A stretch of 18,673 nt of DNA from a virus: IMG/VR virus record IMGVR_UViG_3300045988_025756, positions 1 to 18,673 of that record; one strand, 5' to 3'. A program made the position numbers and the translations under genes. Under the pieces are notes generated by a model. It saw only the letters and a program-made list of their open reading frames with translations. It was not told where the DNA came from and ran no database searches. Shown one piece after another: positions 574 to 18,673 of this stretch (position 1 is its first letter; the number at the start of each line of letters is the position of its first letter).

Positions 574-611
574 GGCTGATGTCTGGTTAGGAGTTTTGAG
601 TTAAGATATAG

Positions 612-646
612 AAAGCCCCCCTAGGTTATATTCCTAGGGGGGCTTT
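612..646. terminator. Bidirectional intrinsic terminator between convergent genes
   Basis: A 14-bp perfect stem (AAAGCCCCCCTAGG / CCTAGGGGGGCTTT) with a 7-nt loop. The A-run and T-run arms give a U-tract in both orientations. It sits between the plus-strand gene ending at 573 and the minus-strand gene ending at 671. Confidence 0.8.
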
Positions 647-670
647 TGAGTCTCAAGTCTCAAGTGGTAA

Positions 671-1842: not shown

Positions 1843-1851
1843 GGTTACTCC

Positions 1852-2217: not shown

Positions 2218-2226
2218 GAATGTTCC

Positions 2227-3333: not shown

Positions 3334-3340
3334 TATATCA
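3332..3340 (-). promoter_or_regulatory. Candidate extended -10 box (TGATATAAT) abutting the ATPase start
   Basis: The minus strand reads TGATATAAT-GAATATT-ATG. A start site ~7 nt downstream would coincide with the ATG at 3324, giving a possibly leaderless mRNA. Confidence 0.35.
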
Positions 3341-3349
3341 TACGATAGT

Positions 3350-3381
3350 GACAGACCGGTAGAGATATCTACCGGTCTGTC
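3350..3381 (-). terminator. Strong hairpin after the tail-lysin gene (candidate terminator without a U-tract)
   Basis: A 14-bp perfect stem (GACAGACCGGTAGA / TCTACCGGTCTGTC) with a 4-nt loop, 7 nt downstream of the stop at 3388. Confidence 0.5.
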
Positions 3382-3387
3382 GTTGTG

Positions 3388-4602: not shown

Positions 4603-4611
4603 GATATTAGT

Positions 4612-4641
4612 ATACCCCGTCCGGCGTACCGGACGGGGTAT
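4612..4641. other. Perfect 13-bp-stem hairpin immediately upstream of the tail-lysin ATG
   Basis: ATACCCCGTCCGG-CGTA-CCGGACGGGGTAT. Its last base is the first base of the parS site. It overlaps a TATACT -10-like box at 4609-4614. Confidence 0.8.
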
Positions 4642-4656
4642 GTTTCACGTGGAACA
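4641..4656. promoter_or_regulatory. parS: parS site (ParB/Spo0J binding centromere), B. subtilis-type
   Basis: TGTTTCACGTGGAACA is the reverse complement of TGTTCCACGTGAAACA, the canonical B. subtilis parS 16-mer. The site is intergenic. Confidence 0.8.
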
Positions 4657-4680
4657 TGAGGATTCCCGATATTATCCATA

Positions 4681-4715
4681 AATAATAATATACCCCACGA
4701 CGGTAAGTCGTGGGG
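4681..4715 (-). terminator. Rho-independent terminator after the fibre gene
   Basis: A 9-bp GC-rich stem (CCCCACGAC / GTCGTGGGG) with a 5-nt loop. On the minus strand it is followed by TATATTATTATTTAT. It lies ~20 nt downstream of the stop at 4736. Confidence 0.7.
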
Positions 4716-4735
4716 TGTGGGGTCGGTGGGTATTG

Positions 4736-5638
4736 TCAGGCAGTGACAAAATATGACAAAGTTGCCGAAAGATTCAGATTTGATTGCGTTGTGGAGTTCG
4801 GGCCCGTTTGGTCTACGTACGGGTATCCTTCGGAGTTGATGCCAAAAAGAAGATGTGCCGGCACGGTATTCTCCGCCCCGATGAAAACATCAAGCAGTTG
4901 CCTTAACGCTCCGGCTGGCCTGTATTGTGATGGCATGGCCATCTCTGCCGGATTTAGGCCGCCACTCCAATTTGTCGCCGTGCCGGTTATGGTAACACGC
5001 AGTATGACAAGCTTTGCGATGGGGGAGTAGTAGGCATGGTAGTCAATTTTTGCTCCGTAGACGTTATCGGTAGTATGATATACCTCGATAGGGTTGACCC
5101 CACTTTTACGCAATGCTTCCAAGGCCGAGTTCGTTGTCGATATTTGGGAGGCATTGGAGCTAATACGGTTGTCAAGCGTTTCCGCGGTCCCGGCATATCC
5201 GCCCTGTTTGACAAACGTCGTGTCGGCCTGCGTCTTGGTATACACACTCGTGGTGTCGGCCTTGCCGGCAACCGTGCCGGATAGTGAGCTGACAGTCCCC
5301 TGCAATGCCGTCAACGCAGTGTTTTCCGCCTTGCCGTCGATGCTGGACTTCAGCGCCTGCGCGGTCTGAGTGGACGTGACGCCGAGCGCGTTGAAATACG
5401 ATTCCTGTTTGGCGATGTCGGTCTTATTGGTCTGCGCAAGTTGCTTCGCCGCGTCCGCCGCCGCCGTCGCGTTGTTCGCCGCCGCCGTCGCCGTGGTGAT
5501 GTTGGTGGCGTTGGTGTACATCTGATTGTCGATTTTCGTCATGGCGTCGGTGAAGTCACCGCGCCATGACGGGCGGTCGTTCGGGTTGTCGCCAAACGTC
5601 GGCAGATTATAATGCCCGGTATGCTGTGTGGTTGACAT
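4736..5638 (-). CDS. Tail fibre / receptor-binding protein
   Basis: The N-terminus (HTGHYNLPTFGDNPNDRPSWRGDFTDAMTKIDNQ) is of the kind conserved at phage fibre N-termini. An Ala/Thr/Gln-rich, coiled-coil-like shaft and a distinct C-terminal domain follow. The SD AAAGGAG lies 7 nt before the ATG. Confidence 0.65.
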   Translation of the reverse strand: MSTTQHTGHYNLPTFGDNPNDRPSWRGDFTDAMTKIDNQMYTNATNITTATAAANNATAAADAAKQLAQTNKTDIAKQESYFNALGVTSTQTAQALKSSIDGKAENTALTALQGTVSSLSGTVAGKADTTSVYTKTQADTTFVKQGGYAGTAETLDNRISSNASQISTTNSALEALRKSGVNPIEVYHTTDNVYGAKIDYHAYYSPIAKLVILRVTITGTATNWSGGLNPAEMAMPSQYRPAGALRQLLDVFIGAENTVPAHLLFGINSEGYPYVDQTGPNSTTQSNLNLSATLSYFVTA

Positions 5639-5658
5639 TGGTCTACTCCTTTTTACTG

Positions 5659-6075
5659 TTATTTAGCGGAACCGACGCGGACGATGCCGTTCGCGTCCTT
5701 GTACATGGAATCAAGCTCGGTCGCCGTCAATCCGAGCTGTGTCGGATGCGAGACGGTTTTATCGGCCTTGCCTGCAAGCCCCGAGGTGAGGGCAGAGGTG
5801 GTGGCGAAACCGCTCACGTCCGGGATGTCGGTTTTCCTGGCGATGGTGGTCGCCACGCCAAGAGGGGAACCTTCGGTACCGTTACCGGTGAGGTCTGCGG
5901 TGTGCGCCACGGTCTTAAGCCCGCCCGCTGTGGCTGATGCGATGTCGTCCGCGTTCCGCTTAAGCTGGGCGTCAATCTTCGTCATGTCGCCGTTATAGTC
6001 ACCGAGCCATGTGGGGTGGTCGGTGCCTGCGAACTGTGAGAGATTATAGTTTCCGGTATGGTTGGTTGCGGTCAT
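5659..6075 (-). CDS. Short fibre-like protein, N-terminal paralogue of 4736..5638
   Basis: The N-terminus (HTGNYNLSQFAGTDHPTWLGDYNGDMTKIDAQ) is clearly paralogous to the downstream fibre. The SD GGAAAGGA lies 8 nt before the ATG. Confidence 0.55.
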   Translation of the reverse strand: MTATNHTGNYNLSQFAGTDHPTWLGDYNGDMTKIDAQLKRNADDIASATAGGLKTVAHTADLTGNGTEGSPLGVATTIARKTDIPDVSGFATTSALTSGLAGKADKTVSHPTQLGLTATELDSMYKDANGIVRVGSAK

Positions 6076-6080
6076 AACTG

Positions 6081-6716
6081 TTATCCTTTCCTATCGAAAT
6101 TGTCGGCGGTCGGATTGCGTTCGACATAGCGCGCATCGGCCTCGGATTGCGTGATGTACGCCATGTCGGCGGGCGGATTCTCGGGCATGGATTTCCCGTA
6201 GGGGAATTGGGTTCGGCCCGGAAAGTCGCCGGGCACGCAATTGTCCACTGCGGTTGCCCTCAGGTCATATTCACGTGCCTTCAGCGACAGCCCGTCGTAC
6301 TCCTGCGCGGTCAACCGCATGTTGTCATAGTCGCCCCAGAACAATCCGTGATTGCGCGCATTGTCATACATGCCGCCAAGCACGTCCCCGAGCGGCTGCG
6401 TGGTACCGTACACCGGAGAGGTTGCCACGCCCTGCTGTTCCATCTCATGAATCAGAGCCAGCAGTTCCGCGCGTAAATCGGCCATAGCCTTGTTGATTTG
6501 CGCCACGGTATCCGCAAGCGCCTTGTCCACGGATGCCGCGAGGTCGGTGGTGGTCTCCTCCAGTCTGCTCAAATCGCATTGGAGGGTATCGAGATTATGG
6601 CGTAGACATTCAATCAACTGCAACGTGGTCAATCCGTCCCGATACGTGAAAGGAACCGACGTGGGCACCCCGTCAAACAAGCATTGCCGTGGAATCATCG
6701 CGTGAATGGCAACCAT
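6081..6716 (-). CDS. Tail-associated structural protein with a central coiled-coil (function unknown)
   Basis: The ORF lies between the lower-collar and fibre genes. GGGAG lies 5 nt before the ATG at 6716, although the ORF track start at 6728 is also possible. The segment LDTLQCDLSRLEETTTDLAASVDKALADTVAQINKAMADLRAELLALI looks helical. Confidence 0.55.
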   Translation of the reverse strand: MVAIHAMIPRQCLFDGVPTSVPFTYRDGLTTLQLIECLRHNLDTLQCDLSRLEETTTDLAASVDKALADTVAQINKAMADLRAELLALIHEMEQQGVATSPVYGTTQPLGDVLGGMYDNARNHGLFWGDYDNMRLTAQEYDGLSLKAREYDLRATAVDNCVPGDFPGRTQFPYGKSMPENPPADMAYITQSEADARYVERNPTADNFDRKG

Positions 6717-6718
6717 GA

Positions 6719-7513
6719 TTACTCCCATTCTCCATAATTATGGCAGTTACTGAAAATAGTATCATACGAGCCCCACACCTGCATGAAACACGGTTCGAGG
6801 CTTCGCACGATTTCCATGTCCACGTTGATGATGGCGTTACGGTATTCTTGTATGAGGCTCATGGCGCTCTGGGAGCGGCCCGACGTGTGGGATTTGGTGC
6901 TCCCATCTGTAGCGTCGGGTTGCCATTCCGTGCTGGATGTACTATGGGACTGGGAAGAGGTATCTTGCGTGCTATGGCTACTGCCGTCCGTATCCGCTTG
7001 CGCCTGATTGGCATGAGTCGCGTATCGAGCAAAATCACCTTGCACGCCGGTTGCGGGCACTTCCGAGTCGTAAGACTGGGACTTGGTGCTACTTGAGCTG
7101 GTGCCGTCCGAAGAGCTTCGGGTCGCACTATCCTGAGAGGCGCTGGTTTTGCCGCTGGACTGGGCTACAGTATTGGACAGGCTTTCACTGACCATTTCTA
7201 TAGTGTTCAATGGGTCATATTTCAAAGCTAGCGTCCTGTAGCGCTCATTAAAATATGGCATGATTTCCGACATCGTCATCCCCAGATAAAAGATGAACTG
7301 TTGCGCGGTTTCCTGTCCTATCTCCCGAAGCGCGTAATGGCGAATGATTTTCTCGTTCAATTCCGCGCGATGACCTTCATCGTAAATCGGGTAATAGTCG
7401 GCGCTGAGATGCAGTTCGGCGTCCGTGTCGTATCCGAACGCAATGAGATTGCCCAATGTTTCCGTGTATTCGCCGGGCGTTGCCATCGCATAGGCGCTGA
7501 AATCCTGTGTCAT
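6719..7513 (-). CDS. Lower collar protein (phi29 gp11 position) with a Ser/Thr-rich insertion
   Basis: The gene lies immediately after the portal (TAATG overlap), as gp11 follows gp10 in phi29. The N-terminal YPIYDEGHRAELNEKIIRHYALREIGQET...EIMPYFNERY resembles lower-collar proteins of small podophages, from memory only. Confidence 0.6.
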   Translation of the reverse strand: MTQDFSAYAMATPGEYTETLGNLIAFGYDTDAELHLSADYYPIYDEGHRAELNEKIIRHYALREIGQETAQQFIFYLGMTMSEIMPYFNERYRTLALKYDPLNTIEMVSESLSNTVAQSSGKTSASQDSATRSSSDGTSSSSTKSQSYDSEVPATGVQGDFARYATHANQAQADTDGSSHSTQDTSSQSHSTSSTEWQPDATDGSTKSHTSGRSQSAMSLIQEYRNAIINVDMEIVRSLEPCFMQVWGSYDTIFSNCHNYGEWE

Positions 7514-8469
7514 TACAATACACCTCCGATACCCGCGTCGTATGACGCGGGCATGTCGATATCAGTTGTACCATTGGCGCTGGAATCCAGCGCGTTGGGC
7601 ACTCCGGAGCTTTGCGCGTCCGCATACTCCACCCACACGTTCAGTTGCGGCCACAATCGGTTGATTTCGGTCGCCGCCGCCTGCCGCGCCTTGAGAAAAC
7701 TCAAACGAAACACGTCTACCTTTTCATTGGCTTGCGCCACCTCATCGGAAATGAGCCGTTCTTTTTTCTCGGTGCCGCTGGACTGGATGCCCAAATACCC
7801 CAGCACCTCGTTGGTTACCTGCGCTTTCTGCTGTACAAACTTGTCCAGCAGATACGGGGTCGTGTTGGGCCACGGCTGGAACATGCTACCGGGGTCCAGC
7901 GAATCGTATCCGATAATATAGTCCTGACCATCCTGCCGCTGTTGCAACATGTTTTGCACGGTGAGCTTGGTACGCGGGTCGGCGGTGATGATAGTGGGAA
8001 GTTTCAGGCTCTCCAAATTGACGTCATACGCCTTGTCAATGTCCGCCAATCGTCGCGCGTACTGCCATAGGATGTCCTTGAATGACATGCGCATACGATT
8101 ATCCCAAATGGGGATGCATTCCCGGCCCGCCTTGAGCTGCTTATAATGGTAGTTGACGCCCACCGGCTCGAAGCACGTCGGATTATTGTAGACGTTCAAT
8201 CGGCCTTGATATCCGGCCTGTGTCACGAGGAACCGGCCTATACGTTTGTCCTCGAAAAACAACGCGCAACCGTATTCGCACAGACACATTTCCAGCCATC
8301 GCTCATCCACGGTCGGCGGCAGCCCCCGCCAACTGAACCGGTTCAAAGCCAGTTCCGCCAGCAAATGATAGTACATTGCGTCAAGGTCGGCGGCGCGCGC
8401 CTTGGCGTAATTGCCACGCGGATGCAACGCGCCGCCCCTACGATTCTGATTTTTCCTCGACCTAGACAT
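7513..8469 (-). CDS. Portal / upper collar connector protein, phi29 gp10-like
   Basis: [31 protein letters not shown] matches phi29 gp10 [51 protein letters not shown] matches [20 protein letters not shown]. The N-terminus is basic. Confidence 0.92.
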   Translation of the reverse strand: [318 protein letters not shown]

Positions 8470-8484
8470 GCCTCTAGTATAGCA

Positions 8485-10734
8485 CTAGAATGAGATGCCC
8501 GGCAATGGGTCGTTATCCGCCCAATCGGTCACGCCGATATCATCCGGGTTAGTCCATATAGTAGCCCCAGACTCGAACACGCCTTTAATGGTCTGCCGAT
8601 ACTGCTCGGGCAAATCACCTCGCACGTAACACTCTTGCATCTGCCAGTAGGTGAATTTTGTCATACATTCCAGCGATTGCGGCGGCGTGATGAAACGCTG
8701 GATAAAATACCCGTAACGCAACATGTACTCTCCGACGCTCCGCAGAGCTGAGGGTGCGCACGTCTTAAATCGAACCAACACCCCGACAATACCGTTCGCG
8801 AGGTTAAAACCGTCTCCGCCGATGGCACCGGATGTGGTCGGGGGTGTTAATTGCATCTGCTGTACCTGTGCATTGATACCCGCAATGGTGTTTTGATAGT
8901 CTCCGAACGCGGAACGTTGCGCGTAATCCGCGTTCATATCCGCCATATTTTGGGCCAACTGGTTTGAAAGCGCTGTAGTCTGAGAGCCGTATGTGTTGGC
9001 CTGACTTGTTGTGGCCGCGTTGGTACTCAGCGAGTTCGCCGTGGAAAGTTGGGCGGCGGTATTGTTGATACTGCGGTTTGCTTCAGTGTTGACACCATTC
9101 ATGACCGCACCGCCTAATGCCGATACCGCGCCCCCGACATTGCCCGAAGCGGCGTTACCCGCCACCCCGACCACGCCGTTAACCACGTTATTCAGCTGTG
9201 CGAGGTCAGCTCGCTGATTGTTGATATACGTCGTGTTGTCCAGACTGGTGTTAAGCGAGGTTGCTTGTATCGCGTTATTGGCGTTGCGGTTGCCGATAGC
9301 GAGTTTGTTGGCTTGGGTATTGTACTGGTTTTGCATGGCCGTGGCCGCGAGAGACTGACTGATGCCCATCTGCGCTTTTTGGTACGCCCAGTCAGCGGAC
9401 TGTTGGCTGTAGGAACGAGTGTAGGCACTGTTTGCCATTGCCAACTGTGCGCCATTGTTGACTATCACAAATTGAGGGAAATTGCTGATGCCAAACGCGG
9501 CGTCCAACATTTCCCCGCTATCAATGGGCAACCCATTGTTTTTATCAAGAGGAGCAATCTCGCTTGCACCCGCCTTATTGTACCCAACCGGGTAAAAGTT
9601 CAAGCGCGCGCCATTGGGCGCGTAATTATGCACCTCTCTAATAACCAGATTATCGCTTTGGATATTTTCGGGCTTATAGGTGATATTAGTGCCATTCAAG
9701 CAAGTGCATTCAACAGTAGAATAGGGGTAGCATTTGAGTTTTTTAAGGTTTTTATAACGTTTAGGGATATTAAAATTATCACGAAAATCATTAATGGTAA
9801 TAATGTCTTCATATCTGCTGGGCGCATTTGTGGCCGACTGGGGGAAACGGTAGATACGATTATTTAATTCCGAAGGGAGTGTTTTCCCAAACAGCTTATC
9901 TACGACATAGCCGGATTGCTTAAGAAAGTCATCATCTAAAGAGGGTATCATGTACATGTTTACAATACCCTGTGTTATCCATGAAAAAGTAGAGCCCACT
10001 CCCATAAACACTTGGATAGACTGGATGTCCTTAAAGTACAGTATTTCAGCACCGTTAGCCATGTTCTCAAACAGAGAGCCGCCCGCAGTAGTGAGAGACG
10101 GTTTTTCCTGACTGCCCGCGTCCGCTGACAAATCTACCGTGCTCACGACTATTACGCCGTAATTCAGATTTTTCCCGTCCATGCTGATAAGAGACTTGTA
10201 CTGTTGGATTACCGTCACCATTTCGCTACCGGTGTCCAGCCCTTCGGGTAGTGCGAGATAACTGCGACCATAATCGGTCATCTGGTTTTCGTTGGCAATG
10301 CCGATATGGCCCCGCACCACATAGCATGAACCAAACCTAAGTACATGCTGGAACGACTGCCAAACGTCCAACTGTACAGTGAGCTGAGTAGTGTACGCAT
10401 TGATGTAATCCACGTGGTTGATGAAATAATACCAATACCGTGGCGCTTCCAAGTCGGGGTAGTCGTTATACACCACGACATAGTTGTAGTTGGACGCCTC
10501 GTTAAATGGCAGTTCGACGCGCACGGGTTGGCCGAACATGTGCATGACTCCATGCACCCTGTCAATGCCGGGCCGTCGGTCGAACCATTCCTGTTGTTTC
10601 TGCGGTGATTCGAACCGGGCTAGGTCACGGTAACTACTATCCCACGGCACGTTACAGAGTTTCAGCGACGTGTTGGGCGTCCATTGAGCCCAGTTAAACG
10701 TCGCCTCGACGTTAGGGTTGATATCTCTCAGCAT
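8485..10734 (-). CDS. Tail knob / distal tube protein, phi29 gp9-like
   Basis: N-terminal similarity: CNVPWDSSYRDLARF...WF versus ADVPFSNDYKNTRWF...WF, and WYYFINHVDYINAYTTQLTVQLDVWQSF versus [31 protein letters not shown]. C-terminal similarity: RYGYFIQRF...IKGVFESGATIWTNPDDIG versus KYGYKINRV...IRTIFDNGITLWHTDNIG. A Gly/Ala-rich loop (VVGVAGNAASGNVGGAVSALGGAV) resembles the gp9 membrane-active loop. I moved the start to ATG 10734 (SD AAAGGGA), because the upstream 14 codons are only the parS palindrome. Confidence 0.88.
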   Translation of the reverse strand: MLRDINPNVEATFNWAQWTPNTSLKLCNVPWDSSYRDLARFESPQKQQEWFDRRPGIDRVHGVMHMFGQPVRVELPFNEASNYNYVVVYNDYPDLEAPRYWYYFINHVDYINAYTTQLTVQLDVWQSFQHVLRFGSCYVVRGHIGIANENQMTDYGRSYLALPEGLDTGSEMVTVIQQYKSLISMDGKNLNYGVIVVSTVDLSADAGSQEKPSLTTAGGSLFENMANGAEILYFKDIQSIQVFMGVGSTFSWITQGIVNMYMIPSLDDDFLKQSGYVVDKLFGKTLPSELNNRIYRFPQSATNAPSRYEDIITINDFRDNFNIPKRYKNLKKLKCYPYSTVECTCLNGTNITYKPENIQSDNLVIREVHNYAPNGARLNFYPVGYNKAGASEIAPLDKNNGLPIDSGEMLDAAFGISNFPQFVIVNNGAQLAMANSAYTRSYSQQSADWAYQKAQMGISQSLAATAMQNQYNTQANKLAIGNRNANNAIQATSLNTSLDNTTYINNQRADLAQLNNVVNGVVGVAGNAASGNVGGAVSALGGAVMNGVNTEANRSINNTAAQLSTANSLSTNAATTSQANTYGSQTTALSNQLAQNMADMNADYAQRSAFGDYQNTIAGINAQVQQMQLTPPTTSGAIGGDGFNLANGIVGVLVRFKTCAPSALRSVGEYMLRYGYFIQRFITPPQSLECMTKFTYWQMQECYVRGDLPEQYRQTIKGVFESGATIWTNPDDIGVTDWADNDPLPGISF

Positions 10735-10759
10735 ACTATCCCTTTCATAAAGAAGGGAG

Positions 10760-10775
10760 TGTTTCACGTGAAACA
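10760..10775. promoter_or_regulatory. parS: parS site, perfect consensus palindrome
   Basis: TGTTTCACGTGAAACA. Flanking GGGAG/CTCCC extend it to a 26-bp perfect palindrome (10755-10780). It lies in the capsid / tail-knob intergenic gap. Confidence 0.85.
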
Positions 10776-10797
10776 CTCCCTTTTATTATATCGCAGA

Positions 10798-10908
10798 TTA
10801 GGCGACTGTCAGTGCCTGACCGCTGACACCGAACAGCGCTGCCGTCAGCTTGGTGGAACCGGCGGCCACTCCAGTGACTAGGCCGGTATTGTCCACTAGG
10901 GGTTCGCG
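10798..10908 (-). pseudogene. Relic 3' fragment of a Big_2 (Ig-like) domain coding sequence
   Basis: The minus-strand frame reads REPLVDNTGLVTGVAAGSTKLTAALFGVSGQALTVA-stop. This parallels the capsid C-terminus VSESGVITGVKAGTSDISATLFGVSGKKQVTVS-stop. The frame opens just after a TGA and has no ATG or SD. Confidence 0.65.
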
Positions 10909-10941
10909 TCATCAATCATCATCCAACCTCCGGTATGACAA

Positions 10942-10974
10942 AGCCCGGAGCGCTCACGTGGCTTGCGCTCCGGG
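10942..10974 (-). terminator. Second hairpin downstream of the capsid gene (terminator candidate)
   Basis: An 11-bp stem (GCCCGGAGCGC / GCGCTCCGGGC) with an 11-nt loop. On the minus strand it is followed by TTTGTCAT. Confidence 0.6.
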
Positions 10975-10996
10975 CCTTGTCCTGCATCACACCGTG

Positions 10997-11024
10997 AGAG
11001 AGGGTAGCCAGTCAGCTACCCTCT
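10997..11024 (-). terminator. First hairpin downstream of the capsid gene (terminator candidate, no U-tract)
   Basis: An 11-bp stem (GAGAGGGTAGC / GCTACCCTCTC) with a 6-nt loop. It starts 10 nt after the capsid stop codon (11035-11037). Confidence 0.55.
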
Positions 11025-11034
11025 CATTGTATCA

Positions 11035-12762
11035 CTAGGATACTGTCACCTGCTTCTTACCGGACACGCCGAACAGCGTGGCGGAGATATCAGAGGTGCC
11101 CGCCTTGACGCCCGTGATAACACCCGACTCGGACACGGTGGCGTTGGCCGGGGTGCCGGATGTCCACGCGGCCTGCGCGGTCACGTCGGCGGTTCGACCG
11201 TCAATCATGGTCGCCGTAGCGGTCGCCTGTGCCGTATGACCCACAGTCACACCCGAGGCATTGACGGCAATCGACGCGATGATAGACGGATTGAATCCGA
11301 TGACGCCATCGCCGACCACCGGCACACTCAGAGCGGCGGACACGGTGTCCGGCACTTCCGGCGTCGCCGGATTCGTATACAGGGCGGTAGCCGTGACCGG
11401 AATAGCGGTGTTCGGTTCGTCAAGACCGACCACCAGCACGCCGGTGGGCGAAATGTACGTGTAATCGCTCTTCGGCTTGGCGGTGTCGCCAATACGATAC
11501 TCAACCGCATTCGAGCGGAACGTGGCCGTGCCATCGTTGGTAATGGTCGTATCGGCAGTGACCTGCACCGCTCCGCCACGCGCCACGTTCTCCGGCGTGG
11601 TCGAACCGCCGCCGTACATAGCGAGCTTAAGTTGGAAGGTCGGCGTCTTGGCCGTCGTACCGGTAGGTGCCACCACGTTCGTGGTGGCGCCCTTTCCCGT
11701 CCAGAACATGATGGCGGGGGCGAAGCCGGACACGCTAATGATGTGCTGGATATGCAGGTAATGGTTGACCGAATTGATGTTGACCGGGTTAACCTGCTGG
11801 GTCATCCCGCTGATAACGGGAATGTCAATGAGGAGCTTGTCCGTGGTGAGGATGGCCTGCACGCCGTCCATGTCGAACTTGTCTTGCGGGATGACGATAA
11901 TCCGGTCGATGGTCGGCTCGGCGTCCGTGCGCTGGAACACTGTGGCAAGGCCCTGCACGTCAAGCGCGGACTTGACTTCGGGCGAACAGAACAACACGAG
12001 TTCGTCCGGGCGGGCGAACGTCGGCATGTGACGCGCATTATACCGGGTGCTGACAAACTTCAGAGTGTCCGCCCATGCGCGAATCTGACGCAACATGTCG
12101 CGGGCGTCCGTTTCCGTCGAACCCATGTTATTGAGGTCATGCTCCATGTGGACACGCCAATAGCCGCCGAGCTTCGCATACTCGACGAACTGGTGGCACA
12201 TGGCCTCAAAAAGGTCAACCTCGGCGGCATTGTAACAGGAGGTGAGAATCTGGGAAGTGAGCGAGGCCAGACCGTTTTCGGACGTAAAGGCACGCTGGAG
12301 CGTCTTATCAGCCGTGGTCGCCGGATAGAAATGGGCAAAGTCCAGACGGTGATAGAGCGAATCCACGTCGATTTTCCACTTGCGGAAATTATCCGCGCCG
12401 AGATATTCCGCGTCCGGGTCATAGACCTGAGCGAGCGGCATGCCCACGGCGATTTCCTGCCACGTGTCGCCATACGCCTGAGATGCACGCTGGAACACGC
12501 TCAGCGGGTTGTTCCAACGCCACGTGTTCACGTAGGTGCCGCCGATACGGTTCACCAGCGCCGAATAAAACTCGTTCTTCAGTTGGGTGGATGACATGAG
12601 GGTGGCCATCTGCCTATCCATGTTCATCTGGGTGGCCGAGGGCATACGCCGCTGATATTCGGGTGATGCCTCGTTACGAATCATATTGAGAATCTGTGCG
12701 TTATTGAATTCGGTGAGCGGGCGAAGCTGCTGCTTCGGCGTCACCACTGGAGTGGTTGACAT
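11035..12762 (-). CDS. Major capsid protein (phi29 gp8 position) with C-terminal Ig-like Big_2 domains
   Basis: A large ORF directly after an acidic scaffold gene. The C-terminal ~180 aa look like Big_2 repeats (..ATVSESGVITGVKAGTSDISATLFGVSGKKQVTVS). The SD AGGAAGGA is present, and ATG 12762 is preferred over 12771 on spacing. The long antisense ORF is a shadow ORF. Confidence 0.85.
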   Translation of the reverse strand: MSTTPVVTPKQQLRPLTEFNNAQILNMIRNEASPEYQRRMPSATQMNMDRQMATLMSSTQLKNEFYSALVNRIGGTYVNTWRWNNPLSVFQRASQAYGDTWQEIAVGMPLAQVYDPDAEYLGADNFRKWKIDVDSLYHRLDFAHFYPATTADKTLQRAFTSENGLASLTSQILTSCYNAAEVDLFEAMCHQFVEYAKLGGYWRVHMEHDLNNMGSTETDARDMLRQIRAWADTLKFVSTRYNARHMPTFARPDELVLFCSPEVKSALDVQGLATVFQRTDAEPTIDRIIVIPQDKFDMDGVQAILTTDKLLIDIPVISGMTQQVNPVNINSVNHYLHIQHIISVSGFAPAIMFWTGKGATTNVVAPTGTTAKTPTFQLKLAMYGGGSTTPENVARGGAVQVTADTTITNDGTATFRSNAVEYRIGDTAKPKSDYTYISPTGVLVVGLDEPNTAIPVTATALYTNPATPEVPDTVSAALSVPVVGDGVIGFNPSIIASIAVNASGVTVGHTAQATATATMIDGRTADVTAQAAWTSGTPANATVSESGVITGVKAGTSDISATLFGVSGKKQVTVS

Positions 12763-12784
12763 GATAATCATTCCTTCCTAATCA

Positions 12785-13126
12785 CTAGTCTTCAAATAGG
12801 TCATCGAATGTACTGTAGGTGCCGTTGTAGTCATCGTCGGTCATTTCAGCCGATTCCGGCGTCGCGTTATCATCCGGGCCGTCGTTGAGCACATGGTCGG
12901 CTGCCGCGTCGCGCATCGCCTCAATGGTTTTGGACAATTCCGCCACGGTCGCTTCCAAAGCGCTGAGACGGTCGGCCATGTCGGCGGTCTTGTCGTCGCC
13001 TGCGTCCTCGGGTTCGCCGTCGTCCTGCGTTTCGGGCTCCGGGTTCGGCGTATTGTCATCGGCGGTCGCGTCCGGTTCGGCGTCGGGCGTGGTGTCCGGC
13101 TTGTCATCGTTTTCGGTATCGTCCAT
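12785..13126 (-). CDS. Scaffolding protein (acidic, helical core)
   Basis: About 113 aa, extremely rich in D/E with a central helical segment (ADRLSALEATVAELSKTIEAMRDAAA). It lies immediately upstream of the capsid gene, as phi29 gp7 does. The SD AAGAGG lies 5 nt before ATG 13126. Confidence 0.65.
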   Translation of the reverse strand: MDDTENDDKPDTTPDAEPDATADDNTPNPEPETQDDGEPEDAGDDKTADMADRLSALEATVAELSKTIEAMRDAAADHVLNDGPDDNATPESAEMTDDDYNGTYSTFDDLFED

Positions 13127-13146
13127 AATCACCTCTTAAAGTAGGG

Positions 13147-13174
13147 GGCATGGCAGCAATCACGCTGCCATGCC
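13147..13174 (-). terminator. Hairpin at the early/late junction (attenuator or terminator candidate)
   Basis: An 11-bp stem (GGCATGGCAGC / GCTGCCATGCC) with a 6-nt loop, ending ~15 nt upstream of the scaffold SD. No U-tract follows. Confidence 0.4.
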
Positions 13175-13313
13175 GAATTGCTAGGCTGTGCGGGCTCCTT
13201 CGCCGTCGCTGGGCGCTGGCTGCGCACGTCTACTTCCGACCGAATCGCCTTACCGACTTGCCTCACGGTCGGGCCATCGAATCGACTTGGGACGCACACC
13301 CCGCTACCAACTA

Positions 13314-14774
13314 TCATAGCACAAAAACATGGCCGTCATCATTGAGATGACGGGACCCCGGCAGAAACTCATCATAGGGGATGGGGGCGGCACGATGCAC
13401 GCCACTCAAACGCATTACCGTGTCACCATTCGTTTCCACGCCGCAATATTTACGATTGCCGAGAATGCGGAGCCTCTCATAGGTATGGTCGTTTTTCCAC
13501 GCCCCAAGCTTCCGGTTATCCGTTTCCACACCTTCGGGCGCGTCCAACCCTTCCAATATCATGCCGTCGGTGTCGGCGTAGAGTACGCGGTCGGCGTTTG
13601 CGTTCATCGCGCGGGATAGTGTTTGACGCCCGTAGGCGTTGACATAGGCGGCGGTCGGAAGCCACGCCAGACTGTTGGCCGACTCGGGCTTGTCCACGGT
13701 AAAATCCACACCCCCGTCCGCCGATGGTTTCGGGTGCAGCATTGGCCGGTACAGCGAGGCCCCGAATTTTCCTACCAACGAGTTCAGTAACAGTTTCGCT
13801 ATTTGCCGACGCTCTCCGGTTGCGGTTTGTTTTACGCAAAACCATTTATCGACATAGTTGTAATAAAGTCCGTGCGATTTACGGAATTTCCAACCGCCGA
13901 CATGCTCCCACACATGGATGTCATAGTTTTCGGTCAGCGTTTCCCAATCCACATCCGTGACTGGCATAGTTACGACGCCTAACGTACTGTCCAAGCGTTC
14001 GCCCTCATACCCCCATACGGGTAGGATGTTGGTGAGCGTCGCTGTTTTCCCCTTTTTCAATCTTGCATCAAACGCAATGATATCGATATGCAGTGGATAA
14101 TCATTGTCATGTCGATATTCGCCGTCATACCATATGGGTGAGTCTACCGGCATGGGTGTATCGCGCATGATACTCGGGTAGAGGCTATTTACGTCCCAGC
14201 TCCGGCAATCCCGGTATTCGCCCGGCTTGCTGTGTACTATCGCCCCATAGTAGGCGGGGCGCATCCGATGATAATCGTTCTTGTCCAATGGTGGGAAATG
14301 GCGTTTGAATCCGGCGTAATCCCCGTCGATATAGTCGGTCATCGCCATGGATGCTATCGTAGTGCCCTTGAAATTCAGGGCGGCGCATTCCTGTGCGATG
14401 TTCCACGTGGTTTCCAAATCGTCCGCACCGCCGAATGTTTCACGTGAAACATTCAGCCCATCGTCACGCGTGACATTGCGCACGTCCATAAAATCCACGG
14501 TGATGCCGCCCATGCGCACGCGGAAACTGTAAAAATGGCCACGAATATTAAAAGTGCCCCATATGCCATTCTTGGCCGGATTGGATTGTAATGGGAGTCG
14601 TTTCAATAGTTCGGCGGCTATAGGCTTGATGTCCTGCCATCCGTGGGCGCACCATACGCGCGTATGATAATCGAGCATGGTGAGGCGGATGATGGCGGTT
14701 GCCGTCAATGGTTCCATACCGTCATCCGTCAATAGTGTTGCGCCGTCTGTTGCCGCCGTTCGACGCTCTCTCAT
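13314..14774 (-). CDS. Protein-primed family B DNA polymerase (phi29 gp2-like), compact 486 aa
   Basis: Motif A: WDVNSLYPSIM. YPLHIDIIAFDARLKKG matches phi29 YPLHIQHIRCEFELKEG (TPR1 region). Motif B: QIAKLLLNSLVGKFG. A TPR2-length insertion is present. Motif C: VLYADTDGM. A KxY-like motif (NRKY) and a YxG(G/A) motif (YYGA) are also present. Confidence 0.95.
   Translation of the reverse strand: MRERRTAATDGATLLTDDGMEPLTATAIIRLTMLDYHTRVWCAHGWQDIKPIAAELLKRLPLQSNPAKNGIWGTFNIRGHFYSFRVRMGGITVDFMDVRNVTRDDGLNVSRETFGGADDLETTWNIAQECAALNFKGTTIASMAMTDYIDGDYAGFKRHFPPLDKNDYHRMRPAYYGAIVHSKPGEYRDCRSWDVNSLYPSIMRDTPMPVDSPIWYDGEYRHDNDYPLHIDIIAFDARLKKGKTATLTNILPVWGYEGERLDSTLGVVTMPVTDVDWETLTENYDIHVWEHVGGWKFRKSHGLYYNYVDKWFCVKQTATGERRQIAKLLLNSLVGKFGASLYRPMLHPKPSADGGVDFTVDKPESANSLAWLPTAAYVNAYGRQTLSRAMNANADRVLYADTDGMILEGLDAPEGVETDNRKLGAWKNDHTYERLRILGNRKYCGVETNGDTVMRLSGVHRAAPIPYDEFLPGSRHLNDDGHVFVL
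14436..14451. promoter_or_regulatory. parS: parS site, perfect consensus, embedded in the DNA polymerase ORF
   Basis: TGTTTCACGTGAAACA. It extends to the 22-bp palindrome GAATGTTTCACGTGAAACATTC (14433-14454) and encodes NVSRETF of the polymerase. Confidence 0.8.
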
Positions 14775-14786
14775 GATTCCATCCTT

Positions 14787-15731
14787 TTAGTGTCGTGTCG
14801 CGCTGGTCATCCATTCATCAAGTCGCGTCTCCACGTCGCCCGCATCCGCTTTTACCTCCCATTTATGTGTCTTATCATTATACCATGCGGCTTCTCGTAC
14901 CACGATGCTGAAATTCGTGTTGTTTATCAGCCATCGTTTTTGACGGTTCGACAAGGAGGCGAATTTTTGGGCTATGCTAGAATCGAATGCCTCAAGCTGC
15001 TGTGAGACCCTATCAAAATCCGCAACCCCCTCGTTCTCGGAAATTTTTCTAGTACCTGCATGCAATGGCGCTCGGCCTATAAGCCCAGCGTATTCGAGTA
15101 TCTCTCGTTCAAGTCTCCGCCGGCTCCCTTCTCGTATCATCACACGCGCGTGGCTTATTCCACGCTCCGAACCGAACACGTTCGCACGGTTGCGTGTGAG
15201 TTCGTCTCGCGCCGAACCGCCGACCGTGTGAGTGCCCAACACGTCAAACGGCGACTCTCCCGCACGTTCCATCTCACGCATTTCAGCCACGGTGTAGCGG
15301 GCCATACTCAACGCCTCGAATTGTTGGGCGCGTTTGATTTTCTGCCGTGCTTCGATACGGCGGCGTTGTTGCTGTCGTAATGTTTTCCGACGTTTTGACG
15401 GGGCGGCGGCGATTTCCGCATCGGTAATCGGCGGGCGCGCCGCCAGCACCCTATCAAGTTTCGTGATATGCACGTCGGGAACGACTTGATACGGTTCATT
15501 GTCACGCGCCCTTAAGGCTTGCTGCTGCTCCCCGAATTCATGCCCAATGCGGCGTGCGACCTGTTCGAGCTGCTGGGCGCTGAGTTTGCCTAGGAATGTT
15601 TCGGTGATTTGTTTTGGGAGGCGTCCGTTACTGTAATCCCTTACCGCTCGTTCTTGACGTACCTGTGCAGACCTGATGGCGGCGTTACGTTTCAGATTGT
15701 TGGCGCGTCGGTTGTTTTTACGTTTAGCCAC
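14787..15731 (-). CDS. Candidate terminal protein (replication primer)
   Basis: The gene lies immediately upstream of the protein-primed polymerase, as phi29 gene 3 precedes gene 2. The protein is 314 aa with a strongly basic N-terminus (MAKRKNNRRANNLKRN). It uses a GTG start with a strong SD (AGAGGAGGGG). I recognise no sequence family, so the call rests on position only. Confidence 0.55.
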   Translation of the reverse strand: MAKRKNNRRANNLKRNAAIRSAQVRQERAVRDYSNGRLPKQITETFLGKLSAQQLEQVARRIGHEFGEQQQALRARDNEPYQVVPDVHITKLDRVLAARPPITDAEIAAAPSKRRKTLRQQQRRRIEARQKIKRAQQFEALSMARYTVAEMREMERAGESPFDVLGTHTVGGSARDELTRNRANVFGSERGISHARVMIREGSRRRLEREILEYAGLIGRAPLHAGTRKISENEGVADFDRVSQQLEAFDSSIAQKFASLSNRQKRWLINNTNFSIVVREAAWYNDKTHKWEVKADAGDVETRLDEWMTSATRH

Positions 15732-15756
15732 GGCCCCTCCTCTTATAAGTGTAAAA

Positions 15757-15795
15757 CACCCCCCCCGCCGTAAGGATGGAAACGACGGGGGGGTG
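15757..15795 (-). terminator. Intrinsic terminator after the SSB-like gene
   Basis: An imperfect GC stem of ~12 bp formed by a C8 run pairing with a G7 run. On the minus strand it is followed by TGTTTTACA. Confidence 0.6.
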
Positions 15796-15857
15796 AGTCT
15801 GGCGGCAACATCCCTATAGGGACATTACCACGCTATCATATGATGTGGACAAAGAGG

Positions 15858-16295
15858 CTACCCACGGTCTTTTTCCGACACTAGTTCGAGGTCAAAGAAT
15901 TTAAATCCACGGCGACTCCTCTTTTCCACAACCTTGAGAACAATCGGATGGCTCCACTTGTCCGGCGTGCCGAAAATGGCGAACAGATTGCCAAAAGCGT
16001 GCGCCAACGTGGGGGAGGCGGCGGCAAAGTCGCCCTCCTCCGCATGAATAACGACGCGGGTAGAAGGGTTGATTTCGCCCGTTTCCTGATTGGTAACCTC
16101 TATGGCCTGCGCCAGCACGTTGGTCACGTGCAATGGCTCATTGAGACGCTCGTCCACCTTGTCGGCGGTCTGCATGGCGTTGTACAGCGCCATTTTACCG
16201 TCCATAGTGGTGGTGTCGAAGAAGTGTGACACGGCGTTGGTACCGTTCGCCGCAAAATTATTGCCGTTTGTTACGGTCAGTTCGTTGTCAGCCAT
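15858..16295 (-). CDS. Putative single-stranded DNA-binding protein (lactococcal-phage SSB-like family)
   Basis: The pattern MALYNAMQ...RLNE...V.NV......V.N.ETGE......RVVIH.EEG.....S......FGNLFAIFGTPDKW resembles the phage SSB family, from memory. The gene lies in the replication module. Confidence 0.5.
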   Translation of the reverse strand: MADNELTVTNGNNFAANGTNAVSHFFDTTTMDGKMALYNAMQTADKVDERLNEPLHVTNVLAQAIEVTNQETGEINPSTRVVIHAEEGDFAAASPTLAHAFGNLFAIFGTPDKWSHPIVLKVVEKRSRRGFKFFDLELVSEKDRG

Positions 16296-16325
16296 GATTA
16301 TTGTTGCCTTCCTTATAATGGTTTA

Positions 16326-16640
16326 TTAATTATTTTCCTCGGAGATGATATCATCTTCAACCACGTTGCCGTTCATCGACCCCGGATACTCGATGATGGT
16401 ATCATCTCCAAATTCACAATTAGCCCAATAGATTGCCTCATCCATGCGCGTTACCTGCGCATGATATTCAGCGGACATGGGCAACATGTCCTTGTTGATC
16501 TTGCGGGCTTTTTTCATTGCCATGTCAGCCGTGCGACACGCGCCGTCCACGACCACCTCGGCGTCCACGAGTTCCCCGTTTTCGCCGCGCGTAACACCGC
16601 TCACAATACTATAGTGCTTGGCTCGCTTAATATATGCCAT
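16326..16640 (-). CDS. Hypothetical early protein with an acidic C-terminal tail
   Basis: The ORF lies in the early operon. The SD AGAGG lies 7 nt before ATG 16640 (the track start at 16646 is also possible). The C-terminus is VVEDDIISEENN. I recognise no family. Confidence 0.6.
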   Translation of the reverse strand: MAYIKRAKHYSIVSGVTRGENGELVDAEVVVDGACRTADMAMKKARKINKDMLPMSAEYHAQVTRMDEAIYWANCEFGDDTIIEYPGSMNGNVVEDDIISEENN

Positions 16641-16658
16641 AATCATACCTCTTTCTTC

Positions 16659-17174
16659 TTAGTGTTGCTGCTGCTGTGACATTCTTGCGATGTCTTCATC
16701 AGTATATCGAACCTCGGTCAGGTTGTCAAAACAGAGAGACGCAATTTTGATGATGGTCTGAGCAAACTCATCACCCTCCCAAGTCTTGCACATCTCGTAG
16801 CAAGTCGCGCCCTTGACATGACAGACCGCGCACCACGCCACCATCGCCGGACAATAAACAAGCCCGGACAACATTTCAATGTCCTGCGTTCGTGATAATG
16901 CGGCGTACATTGATGAATGAGGCGAGATGCTTAGACAAATGTTCGCCGCGTGTTCGATACTGTCGGCAAACGCCACTTGACCGCCTTGGGGTTTATAAAA
17001 GTCCTTGAGTAGTGCTATACTACGACACAATGCCTCCCAATCGCCATCACCTTTATTATATTCCCGCAAGTGCAGGTTACGCCGACGGCCACGAATGACA
17101 CGGCGCACACGGTCATCATCCAAAATACCGTCATCAAACCAATTCGTGCGGTCATCATTACTCTTCATTTTCAA
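16659..17174 (-). CDS. Hypothetical early protein (Cys-rich segment)
   Basis: GGAGGTGAAGG lies ~10 nt before the ATG. A cluster CPAMVAWCAVCHVKGATCYEMC is present. I recognise no family. Confidence 0.6.
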   Translation of the reverse strand: MKMKSNDDRTNWFDDGILDDDRVRRVIRGRRRNLHLREYNKGDGDWEALCRSIALLKDFYKPQGGQVAFADSIEHAANICLSISPHSSMYAALSRTQDIEMLSGLVYCPAMVAWCAVCHVKGATCYEMCKTWEGDEFAQTIIKIASLCFDNLTEVRYTDEDIARMSQQQQH

Positions 17175-17237
17175 TATCCTTCACCTCCATAGTCACAGTA
17201 GGACAACCTTTTAACAAACACTTCGCATTACATATCA

Positions 17238-17489
17238 CTAACGCCTTTCAATCAACAAAGTATTAGCCAACGCCATCGCGTCAACCAGCATATGAGCCAC
17301 CTGCGCATAATCGCACGCATCAAACGCCACAGCCGACCAAATCAAACTACGCCTGCCACCAGACTGAGACCGCCTCGATACCGCATACCGCAGTTCATAC
17401 ATCCGATTATGAGGACAATACACCAAACACACATCACCGTCCTTAAACCCGGACGGAAACACGGACACAACCTCATCACTCACCATCAT
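17238..17489 (-). CDS. Hypothetical small early protein
   Basis: The start MMVSDEVV is preceded by GGGGGGTG and overlaps the stop of the upstream gene. I judge the track N-terminal extension to be non-coding. Confidence 0.55.
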   Translation of the reverse strand: MMVSDEVVSVFPSGFKDGDVCLVYCPHNRMYELRYAVSRRSQSGGRRSLIWSAVAFDACDYAQVAHMLVDAMALANTLLIERR

Positions 17490-17736
17490 CAAACACCCCC
17501 CCAAACGACAAACGCACCTTGACAATACCATTCAAAAAACCCGTTCTTGGGTCAAACGAGGAATGCTTAAAACCAGCATACACATCAAACCCGGTAAACA
17601 CATCGCGAACAACGTCAAGCACGCCATCCAACGCCTTATTAAACGTATCCGCCGGATACGGGCCATACACACCCACATACTCAGACGTGAGCTCATATAC
17701 CGTAAAATCATCAGGCGTAACAGTAAAACACCACAT
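17476..17736 (-). CDS. Hypothetical small early protein
   Basis: ATG 17736 (MWCFTV...) lies downstream of GGAAGGTGG. The N-terminus resembles that of the upstream gene (MWHYFTV...). Confidence 0.55.
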   Translation of the reverse strand: MWCFTVTPDDFTVYELTSEYVGVYGPYPADTFNKALDGVLDVVRDVFTGFDVYAGFKHSSFDPRTGFLNGIVKVRLSFGGVFDDGE

Positions 17737-17741
17737 ATTAA

Positions 17742-17987
17742 TCACACCCACCTTCCCCCATAAGTCCTATAAAATTCCTTAAAATCAAAATTACGATAAT
17801 ACTCAAAACCATCATCCAAGTCAACAAAAGACCTCATCGGAATCCAACGGCCACACATCCCATCATACATTTGAAACTGATAATCAACCCCACAGTAACC
17901 GCAAGTCGCCTCACGCCACCGAAAACGACGGTCTAAACCCGTGTACGTGTCAACAACAGTAAAATAATGCCACATATCAACCGTCAT
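17742..17987 (-). CDS. Hypothetical small early protein
   Basis: GGAAGG abuts ATG 17987. An alternative ATG at 17975 gives MWHYFTV. The protein is rich in aromatic and Cys residues. Confidence 0.55.
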   Translation of the reverse strand: MTVDMWHYFTVVDTYTGLDRRFRWREATCGYCGVDYQFQMYDGMCGRWIPMRSFVDLDDGFEYYRNFDFKEFYRTYGGRWV

Positions 17988-18063
17988 CCTTCCATGTTCC
18001 TCGGCTGATACTCACATTTGCCATCACAGTAATAACGCGGTACAGCGAACACCTGAACAAGTT

Positions 18064-18321
18064 TCATGCCCATCTCATCATCACCGTTTCCTCACCATAA
18101 AAACGCTCAGGATTCTCAGAAACAAACCTCACGAGGCGATAAATAAAGCCCACCATATTATCCATAGCCGAACAAACCTCACCAGAACAAGAATCATACG
18201 TTTCAGTGAAGAATTTTACAACCACAAACCTCTTTAGACGATAGCGCAAGATAAGAACCTCTTTCCCGTCCAAATCACCAGTCTCAAAACAAACAGAAAT
18301 ACCAGTCATCTCAACCACCAT
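18064..18321 (-). CDS. Hypothetical small protein (right-end, first early gene)
   Basis: The start ATGGTGGTTGAGATG mirrors the left-end gene start. GGAAAGG lies upstream, and an alternative ATG lies at 18309. The rest of the protein is unrelated to the left-end protein. Confidence 0.55.
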   Translation of the reverse strand: MVVEMTGISVCFETGDLDGKEVLILRYRLKRFVVVKFFTETYDSCSGEVCSAMDNMVGFIYRLVRFVSENPERFYGEETVMMRWA

Positions 18322-18454
18322 CCTTTCCGCATTCCTTGGTTGATACTTATATAATACCACACCACAAAAACACAACACGCCGAACAACACAAAAAACTAT
18401 AAAAAAACTACGCGCTTAAAATATAGACAAAACCACACGCTTAAAACCTGAAAC
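18307..18454. repeat. Imperfect inward extension of the right ITR (promoter, leader and first 5 codons)
   Basis: Mirror image of 220-336 with indels (see left copy). Confidence 0.85.
18346..18395 (-). promoter_or_regulatory. Candidate right-end early promoter (extended -10 type)
   Basis: On the minus strand, TGgTATTAT occupies plus-strand coordinates 18351-18359, within the conserved mirror block shared with 258-300. Confidence 0.5.
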
Positions 18455-18673
18455 AAAACAACACGCAGAATCAACAACAGAAAAGAGGCAGGCAAAACAG
18501 AAGACAACAGAAACGATAACAGATGGCAGAACAAGAACGGCAATAAAAAACACAAGACAAAACGCAAGAGCAAGACACAGAACAGAACGGTTGTGGAAAA
18601 AGGATAGCTGCTGGGGGCCCTCCCCTATCTATACAAACATCGTAAAAATTATCTTTAAGCTCAATAACCAAAG
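18455..18673. repeat. Right inverted terminal repeat (perfect part)
   Basis: Exact reverse complement of 1-219. Confidence 0.97.

Follow-up and report, generated by a model that had tools for sequence, protein, structure and literature searches.

The phi29-type DNA polymerases are the textbook single-protein replicases, in which processivity, strand displacement and proofreading are joined. A 2024 review of phi29-like phages gives the polymerase simply as having both activities, polymerase and exonuclease. In the phi29 enzyme, the exonuclease site is built from D12, E14, D66 and D169, which bind two metals, with Y165 orienting the attacking water and K143 stabilising D169 (PMC4974454). The exonuclease domain also forms, together with TPR2, palm and fingers, a tunnel in which Y101 and T189 contact the downstream template; this tunnel confers strand-displacement capacity on the enzyme, and mutants of the exonuclease metal ligands are impaired in strand displacement (PMC6351526). 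Here, we describe the polymerase encoded by an 18,673-nucleotide stretch of viral DNA (IMG/VR record IMGVR_UViG_3300045988_025756, positions 1 to 18,673), hereafter the window, which is a complete phi29-like linear genome of 18.7 kb with inverted terminal repeats and whose probable host is Bifidobacterium. Comparisons of sequence and predicted structure indicate, with a probability that we put at about 0.7, that this is a replicative, protein-primed, strand-displacing family B polymerase in which a trimmed domain of exonuclease descent is kept and proofreading has very probably been lost.

The polymerase gene and two of its polymerisation motifs are placed as follows.

13314 to 14774, minus strand: DNA polymerase of family B, protein-primed, an open reading frame (ORF) of 486 residues matching PF03175 and the phi29 DNA polymerase
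14175 to 14195, minus strand: motif A, D194-V-N-S-L-Y199-P, intact
13563 to 13580, minus strand: motif C, Y399-A-D401-T-D403-G, intact

The original prediction concerned positions 14330 to 14774, the 5' third of this minus-strand ORF, and proposed a phi29-type polymerase of 486 residues with a short N-terminal domain and degenerate exonuclease motifs; its observation is confirmed in part and its interpretation supported in part. The identity of the enzyme stands. PF03175 is matched with an E-value of 7.8e-35 (121.1 bits against a cut-off of 25.8) by residues 130-341, covering only profile positions 168-390, and the phi29 DNA polymerase (1xhx) is matched with an E-value of 2.7e-44 across residues 155-443, so that in both searches the N-terminal 130-154 or so residues are left unaligned. 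The ORF cannot extend further at its N-terminus because the preceding ORF ends at 14787. The AlphaFold2 model of the full-length protein has a mean predicted local distance difference test score (pLDDT) of 91.2, with 87-95 within the N-terminal domain, and a Foldseek comparison of this model with the phi29 structure 2pyj gives a TMq of 0.84. The residues D194 and Y199 of motif A (Dx2SLYP) and D401 and D403 of motif C (YxDTD) are invariant.

The unaligned N-terminal region corresponds to a shortened domain.

14358 to 14774, minus strand: reduced exonuclease-fold N-terminal domain, residues 1-139 (phi29 1-189), identified by hhalign, the AlphaFold2 model and the ratio of nonsynonymous to synonymous substitution (dN/dS)

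Counted up to an invariant Thr, this domain spans 139 residues against 189 in phi29, and the proposed shortening is thus real. A tblastn search of 50,697 phage records with the N-terminal 155 residues alone returned nothing at E<=1, and its homology was picked up by profile methods only. When the N-terminal profile of the short polymerases was aligned by hhalign to the canonical exonuclease-domain profile, the probability was 93.7% (E-value 2e-7). Modelled by itself in AlphaFold2 (pLDDT 86.5), the domain has the phi29 polymerase as its sole significant match in the PDB (E-value 1.7e-3, TMq 0.65), and its BFVD matches are the BadAztec1 polymerase followed by protein-primed family B polymerases of phages, archaeal viruses and adenoviruses. 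By profile and predicted fold, then, the domain is homologous to the phi29 exonuclease domain and belongs to the DnaQ-like fold of the DEDDy 3'-5' exonucleases of proofreading polymerases. Searched against 1.84 billion representative sequences, the N-terminal profile returned 29 matches, among which the credible ones are all short polymerases or fragments and no canonical enzyme of about 570 residues appears; the top match, P0121 (5975 residues, 48 stretches), was rejected as a spurious hit to an unrelated tandem-repeat protein. Despite its homology to the exonuclease domain, it defines a narrow family of its own.

The loss of about 50 residues from this domain is distributed over two segments, 16 residues before ExoII and 32 between ExoII and ExoIII, and a 27-residue gap inside the second removes K143 and Y165. 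About 32 further residues are gone from the hairpin after the KxY motif and from the thumb. The 89-residue shortfall relative to phi29 is therefore not all to be sought between ExoII and ExoIII, where the original prediction had looked for it.

The remnants of the exonuclease motifs are located as follows.

14736 to 14750, minus strand: ExoI remnant T9-D10-G11-A12-T13 (phi29 D12 to D10, E14 to A12 and T15 to T13 in three MAFFT modes)
14628 to 14648, minus strand: ExoII remnant A43-H44-G45-W46-Q47-D48-I49, with D48 on phi29 D66
14472 to 14489, minus strand: (S/T)Lx2h remnant M96-D97-V98-R99-N100-V101 (phi29 D121 to D97, S122 to V98, L123 to R99)
14409 to 14435, minus strand: deletion junction and ExoIII remnant F114-G115-G116-A117-D118-D119-L120-E121-T122

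Residues were mapped onto phi29 by three concordant MAFFT modes, with which hhalign was consistent for ExoII and the thumb. The ExoI pattern Asp-x-Glu is broken: D10 directly follows strand 1 of the model (residues 4-9), and the Glu position is occupied by A12, with Ala, Val or Thr there in 77 of 77 close relatives. At ExoII, phi29 strand 4 and the start of the following helix (DLYFHNLKFD66) correspond to TRVWCAHGWQD48; D48, in the first turn of model helix 46-59, falls on D66 in alignment A1 and by hhalign, whereas joint alignment by MAFFT shifts it by one residue, and the position of phi29 N62 is His or Gly, depending on the register. The Ser and Leu of (S/T)Lx2h are replaced by V98 and R99; the adjacent D97 is Asp in at least 90% of the sequences of alignments A1 and A2 and is nearly conserved across both short and canonical polymerases. 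The phi29 segment T140-N168 has no counterpart, and with it are deleted both Y165, the Tyr of the ExoIII pattern Tyr-x3-Asp, and K143, the Lys of Kx2h. An ungapped run back from the invariant T139, which corresponds to T189, places D119 on D169. This placement is favoured by the model, in which helix 119-132 is followed by a 7-residue loop equivalent to the phi29 loop Q183-T189.

The original prediction had used another register, in which TRVW was anchored on phi29 CRVW, ExoI was read at AIIRLT and ExoII at FNIRGHF. Four MAFFT runs, hhalign and the order of secondary structure in the model all disagree with it: MAFFT, hhalign and the model agree that ExoII is preceded by the strand TRVWC and that strand 1 ends in TDGAT, so the TRVW anchor is spurious, ExoI is TDGAT and ExoII, where the Asp had been described as replaced, is AHGWQDI. 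Three other anchors, FKRHFPPL, YYGA and DVNSLYP, are right. With the register corrected, the assertion that ExoI retains neither acidic residue holds for the Glu and fails for the Asp (D10); at ExoIII the Tyr is indeed absent and the Asp, also described as replaced, is probably retained as D119; and the (S/T)Lx2h motif is lost in the region indicated, although FMDVRNV had been aligned one residue out of register. The string YIDGD, offered as an alternative ExoIII, aligns from phi29 F198 onward, past T189 and the end of the exonuclease domain, and its Tyr is a conserved aromatic also found there in canonical enzymes. A profile alignment had been named as the test that could overturn the loss of the acidic residues, and it places an Asp at each of the ExoI, ExoII and ExoIII positions. 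What survives of the proposal is a degenerate exonuclease site in a domain that is probably kept for a non-catalytic role; the replacement of every acidic ligand was a product of the mis-registered alignment.

The same short polymerase is widespread. A 486-residue orthologue, 87-97% identical to the window protein, is found on about 80 IMG/VR contigs with lengths of 17-19 kb, and more distant relatives are 454-511 residues long, among them the enzymes of the isolated Bifidobacterium phages BP1 (471 residues) and BadAargau2 (470 residues), which fall in the short clade. Other phi29-like phages, including the actinobacterial Av-1, LE1-1, Momos and Anjali, have polymerases of 562-598 residues with a canonical ADFETT ExoI. 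The short polymerase is not a sequencing artefact, since the same residues recur in 77 relatives from IMG/VR and again in some 25 clusters that are more distant. The idea that this polymerase copy is decaying or has no part in replication, or that it is an artefact of assembly, would account for the missing motifs and for nothing else, and is hardly credible for the only polymerase of a complete genome with inverted terminal repeats, in which the polymerisation ligands are all invariant, dN/dS is about 0.08 and the protein recurs on independent contigs and in the cultured phages BP1 and BadAargau2.

On the polymerase domain the short clade is monophyletic in 200 of 200 neighbour-joining bootstraps when the borderline sequence P0145 is excluded, so that one ancestral loss followed by drift is the simplest history. 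The branch separating it from canonical enzymes measures about 1.6 substitutions per site, against about 0.9 among the canonical enzymes of Bacillus, Clostridium and actinobacterial phages. P0145 itself (511 residues) combines a degenerate N-terminal domain with a preserved Tyr in motif B (NNIYGKF). Only 121 of 200 bootstraps place it with the short clade, and it may be an intermediate between canonical and short forms. Two further variations were seen among the relatives. The first Asp of motif C is Asn (YANTDG) in P0094, P0098, P0099, BP1, P0127, P0128, P0131, P0133 and P0139, the window protein keeping D401, and in many of the more distant short-clade enzymes the Lys of KxY has given way to Gly, Asn, Ser or Gln. 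Strings of the form DGE or DGD in P0131, P0132, P0133, P0136, P0125 and P0128 were considered as surviving ExoI Asp-x-Glu motifs and rejected; in the wider alignment most of them belong to a second DG turn (D18-G19 in the window protein), and only the small sub-group P0125, P0127, P0128 and P0131 is acidic at the second position beyond the first Asp.

An alignment of 39 sequences, 26 representatives of the short clade and 13 canonical polymerases, shows how the exonuclease positions have evolved. In the 13 canonical enzymes the positions of D12, E14, D66, D169, Y165 and K143 are all invariant; in the 26 short ones the second ExoI ligand position (+2) and the ExoII and ExoIII positions are freely variable, D48 and D119 being kept in the sub-clade of the window only. 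Exonuclease chemistry has probably been lost, because the equivalents of E14, Y165 and the auxiliary K143 are absent, as is the (S/T)L motif that binds single-stranded DNA, and the former ligand positions drift across the clade. Several observations weigh against this conclusion. D10, D48 and D119 align with the three Asp ligands, or miss them by no more than one residue, and none of them varies in the 77 close relatives, so that by sequence these ligands appear to be retained, and D118 or E121, close by, could in principle replace the missing Glu; the ExoIII register that hhalign assigns is three residues away from that of MAFFT. With some 44% of the positions of the protein unchanged throughout the 77 relatives, the invariance of the three Asp residues is weak evidence either way. 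The confidence in lost editing is held to about 0.7 because these residues remain.

They could alternatively belong to a minimised exonuclease that still works, perhaps at a reduced rate, with D10, D48 and D119 binding two metals together with D118 or E121. In addition to the invariance of the three Asp residues within the sub-clade, the E121 position is acidic in most members of the short clade, and the N-terminal domain is under strong purifying selection: at a synonymous divergence of 0.6-0.8 among the 77 relatives, residues 1-154 have a dN/dS of 0.085 and the remainder one of 0.075, so that selection constrains the domain as much as the polymerase part. D48 and D119, however, are not conserved in the wider clade though the domain is, which is not the pattern of an active site, and we regard a working exonuclease as unlikely. 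The population behind these estimates is very diverse, the 77 polymerase genes having a mean identity of 85% at the nucleotide and 90% at the protein level and coming mostly from IMG dataset 3300045988.

Two residues of the domain, conserved or nearly so in short and canonical enzymes alike, point to the role for which it may have been kept.

14529 to 14531, minus strand: Y82, equivalent to phi29 Y101 of the downstream-template tunnel
14358 to 14360, minus strand: T139, equivalent to phi29 T189 of the tunnel, in the inter-domain loop

T139 is invariant in 39 of the 39 aligned sequences, and the position of Y82 is Tyr in 21 of 26 short-clade and 13 of 13 canonical enzymes, the remaining short-clade members having Phe or Ile. 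The domain is probably retained as a scaffold in a non-catalytic role. In the replication scheme that we favour, with proofreading lost, synthesis would be primed on a terminal protein, probably the product of the ORF at 14787-15731, and would proceed from the repeat-bearing ends with strand displacement. The primer end would no longer be bound and hydrolysed efficiently, leaving misincorporations unedited, and the N-terminal domain would provide one wall of the downstream-template tunnel through Y82 and T139, support TPR2 in strand displacement and possibly contact the terminal protein. The three Asp residues may serve a structural role, because in phi29 mutation of the metal ligands impairs strand displacement.

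The remainder of the polymerase also departs from phi29, in part at a position that bears on fidelity.

13767 to 13796, minus strand: motif B, K327-LLL-N331-S-L-V334-G-K, with the Tyr (phi29 Y390) replaced by Val
13683 to 13751, minus strand: beta-hairpin equivalent to TPR2, residues 342-364, aligned to phi29 TPR2 by hhalign, with model strands 345-350 and 356-361
13317 to 13454, minus strand: R441-K442-Y443 (KxY with Lys replaced by Arg) and shortened thumb, residues 441-486

The Tyr of motif B is described as invariant in family B polymerases. In the window protein the pattern Kx3NSxYG retains K327 and N331 and carries V334 in place of this Tyr, as the original prediction had read it (NSLVGKF); the position is Val, Ile, Ala or Thr in 24 of 25 short-clade representatives and Val in 75 of 77 close relatives. 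The wild-type phi29 enzyme discriminates at insertion by a factor of 1e4-1e6 (PMC6351526), a value that falls to about 3e2 in the mutant Y390S (PMC1976434). Lost editing together with the motif B Val is predicted from the sequence to give a lower replication fidelity than that of phi29, which an 18.7-kb genome could tolerate, and a high mutation rate of the phage may be inferred. The polymerisation motifs had been called intact, and this is borne out for motifs A and C and for the TPR1 and TPR2 insertions, both of which align to phi29 by hhalign without large gaps, and not for KxY, where phi29 K498 corresponds to R441, or for Tx2GR, where T434 corresponds to N379. The thumb is reduced, 43 residues following the Tyr of KxY against 75 in phi29; K555, K557, Q560 and K575 have no counterpart, and the positions of T571 and T573 are Val or lost. 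The roles of these six thumb residues in phi29 have been described (PMC1475753).

The genes and repeats around the polymerase are those expected of a phi29-like replication system.

1 to 256, no strand: left inverted terminal repeat, 95% complementary to 18418-18673
18418 to 18673, no strand: right inverted terminal repeat of 256 nucleotides, pairing with 1-256
14787 to 15731, minus strand: putative terminal protein gene, 314 residues, assigned by position only
15858 to 16295, minus strand: phi29-type single-stranded DNA-binding protein gene (PF17427, E-value 3.1e-14; phrog_6243)

At least the first 120 nucleotides are identical at both genome ends, and weaker repeats continue beyond the 256-nucleotide repeats to about 410 and 18332. 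The ORF at 14787-15731 lies between the genes for the single-stranded DNA-binding protein and the polymerase, as does the terminal protein gene in Av-1, and on the basis of this position its product is probably the terminal protein. It is 29% identical to BP1 gp15 and showed no similarity to the Av-1 terminal protein or to entries in the PDB, Pfam or PHROGs. Protein priming of the polymerase is accordingly putative, supported indirectly by the 256-nucleotide repeats and the position of this ORF. The gene set of a phi29-like podophage with a genome of about 15-20 kb is present (capsid, connector, tail knob, packaging ATPase and single-stranded DNA-binding protein), with the major capsid protein matching PF25622 (E-value 3.5e-86), the tail knob gp9 also matched, and connector, lower collar, terminase and holin/endolysin genes identified. 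The genome is syntenic with Bifidobacterium phage BP1, the nearest cultured phages are BP1 and BadAargau2, and one close homologue carries the label of a Bifidobacterium breve assembly.

No second exonuclease and no helicase turned up when all ORFs of the genome were compared with Pfam and PHROGs, and the sole convincing Walker A motif sits in the terminase. This result bears on the possibility that a host exonuclease, for example of the DnaQ epsilon type, or an unannotated small phage protein proofreads in trans, in which case fidelity would be unharmed. Room for such a protein exists among the early ORFs that have no family assignment (16326-16646, 16659-17174, 17238-17531, 17742-17987 and 18064-18390). 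We know of no phi29-like system that proofreads in trans, and no ORF showed an exonuclease fold in the Pfam and PHROGs searches. The enclosed tunnel of phi29-type enzymes, moreover, gives little access to the primer end (PMC6351526 and established knowledge), and we consider editing in trans quite improbable, more so than a residual exonuclease in the polymerase itself.

Other features of the genome were noted. Between 17001 and 18000 the GC skew is -0.42 and the AT skew +0.27, opposite in sign to the remaining genome; the coding strand may switch here, or a separate early region may lie close to the right end. None of the ORFs of this interval has a family match. Two separate cell-wall hydrolase genes are present (3388-4602 and 1117-1842), arranged as in BP1, the first encoding a 404-residue hydrolase with an N-terminal endolysin-like domain and the second a 241-residue endolysin adjoining the holin. 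A perfect palindrome of 22 nucleotides, GA(G/A)TGTTTCACGTGAAACA(C/T)TC, occurs twice, at 10757-10778, overlapping the start of the tail-knob gene, and at 14433-14454, within polymerase codons 107-114 (NVSRETF). In the 77 relatives conservation at the third codon positions of the polymerase copy is 0.88, above the average of 0.78 for the gene, and in three of them a symmetric double change (GTCTCACGTGAGAC) leaves the palindrome intact. It may be an operator or a hairpin.

An exonuclease-deficient replicase is unusual for this kind of enzyme. We found no description in the literature of exonuclease loss in phi29-like tailed phages or Bifidobacterium phages, though coverage was incomplete and this is absence of evidence only, and the database records of BP1 and BadAargau2 are annotated 'DNA polymerase' without remark on the exonuclease site. 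If proofreading has been lost as we propose, the clade would add a tailed-phage case to the few protein-primed family B polymerases known without it. A natural group of enzymes that lacks exonuclease chemistry and yet must displace strands would separate the structural from the catalytic needs of the domain, and would offer a natural starting point for the exonuclease-free, strand-displacing enzymes wanted in sequencing-by-synthesis. It also makes it possible to test whether the fidelity of the polymerase is connected with the microdiversity among the abundant Bifidobacterium phages of the gut. A bolder proposal, which we hold only tentatively and judge to have the odds against it, is that an entire lineage of tailed Bifidobacterium phages with double-stranded DNA is replicated by a polymerase that is protein-primed and independent of a helicase, lacks proofreading and has a base-selection pocket widened by the change of Tyr to Val in motif B. 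Were this true, mutation rates would lie one to several orders of magnitude above those of other double-stranded DNA phages and could explain the diversity of the group (mean synonymous divergence of 0.6-0.8 at about 90% protein identity, and a branch almost twice the canonical length), and the three kept Asp residues would make up a site, with a metal or a structural role, that arose to keep strand displacement going in the absence of exonucleolysis.

The closest described system is phi29 itself. Its polymerase (gp2; 1XHX, 2PYJ) and that of the window share the fold, motifs A and C, most of motif B, YxG(G/A), TPR1 and TPR2, and in both genomes, small and linear with terminal repeats, the polymerase gene adjoins that of a terminal protein, putative in the window, and a phi29-type single-stranded DNA-binding protein is encoded. 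The window enzyme differs in an N-terminal domain 50 residues shorter without equivalents of E14, K143, Y165 and S122/L123, in having Val for Y390, Asn for T434 and Arg for K498, and in a thumb and preceding hairpin about 32 residues shorter that lack K555, K557, Q560 and the C-terminal TFTIK. Its genome has terminal repeats of 256 nucleotides, where those of phi29 have 6. Retention of an exonuclease fold for structural purposes after loss of its catalytic residues is known from eukaryotic Pol alpha and Pol zeta and from archaeal PolB2, which, unlike the window enzyme, are RNA- or DNA-primed and act with accessory factors rather than as lone protein-primed phage replicases. The polymerases of the Badaztecvirus phages BadAargau2 and BadAztec1 and of phage BP1 have the same short architecture (470-471 residues), belong to the same clade, come from syntenic genomes and have likewise lost the motif B Tyr; these Bifidobacterium podophage enzymes, 33-37% identical to that of the window, have lost D48 and D119 as well and, by sequence, may be without strand 1 altogether.

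Among protein-primed family B polymerases, exonuclease loss has been reported for mavirus-type and polinton-like viruses, in which, as proposed here, the palm remains active, and a lower fidelity was inferred by the authors (PMC11161782). Those are eukaryotic viruses of another realm, in which most of the domain is gone and its loss accompanies the gain of a helicase (PMC11161782), whereas the window enzyme retains the fold, its genome has no detectable helicase gene and its host is bacterial. The engineered phi29 variant D12A/D66A is a phi29-type polymerase without proofreading in which strand displacement is impaired (PMC6351526). That variant removes Asp residues that the window enzyme has kept, and the window enzyme has instead lost the Glu, Tyr and Lys; unlike the mutant, it must still displace strands in order to replicate its genome.

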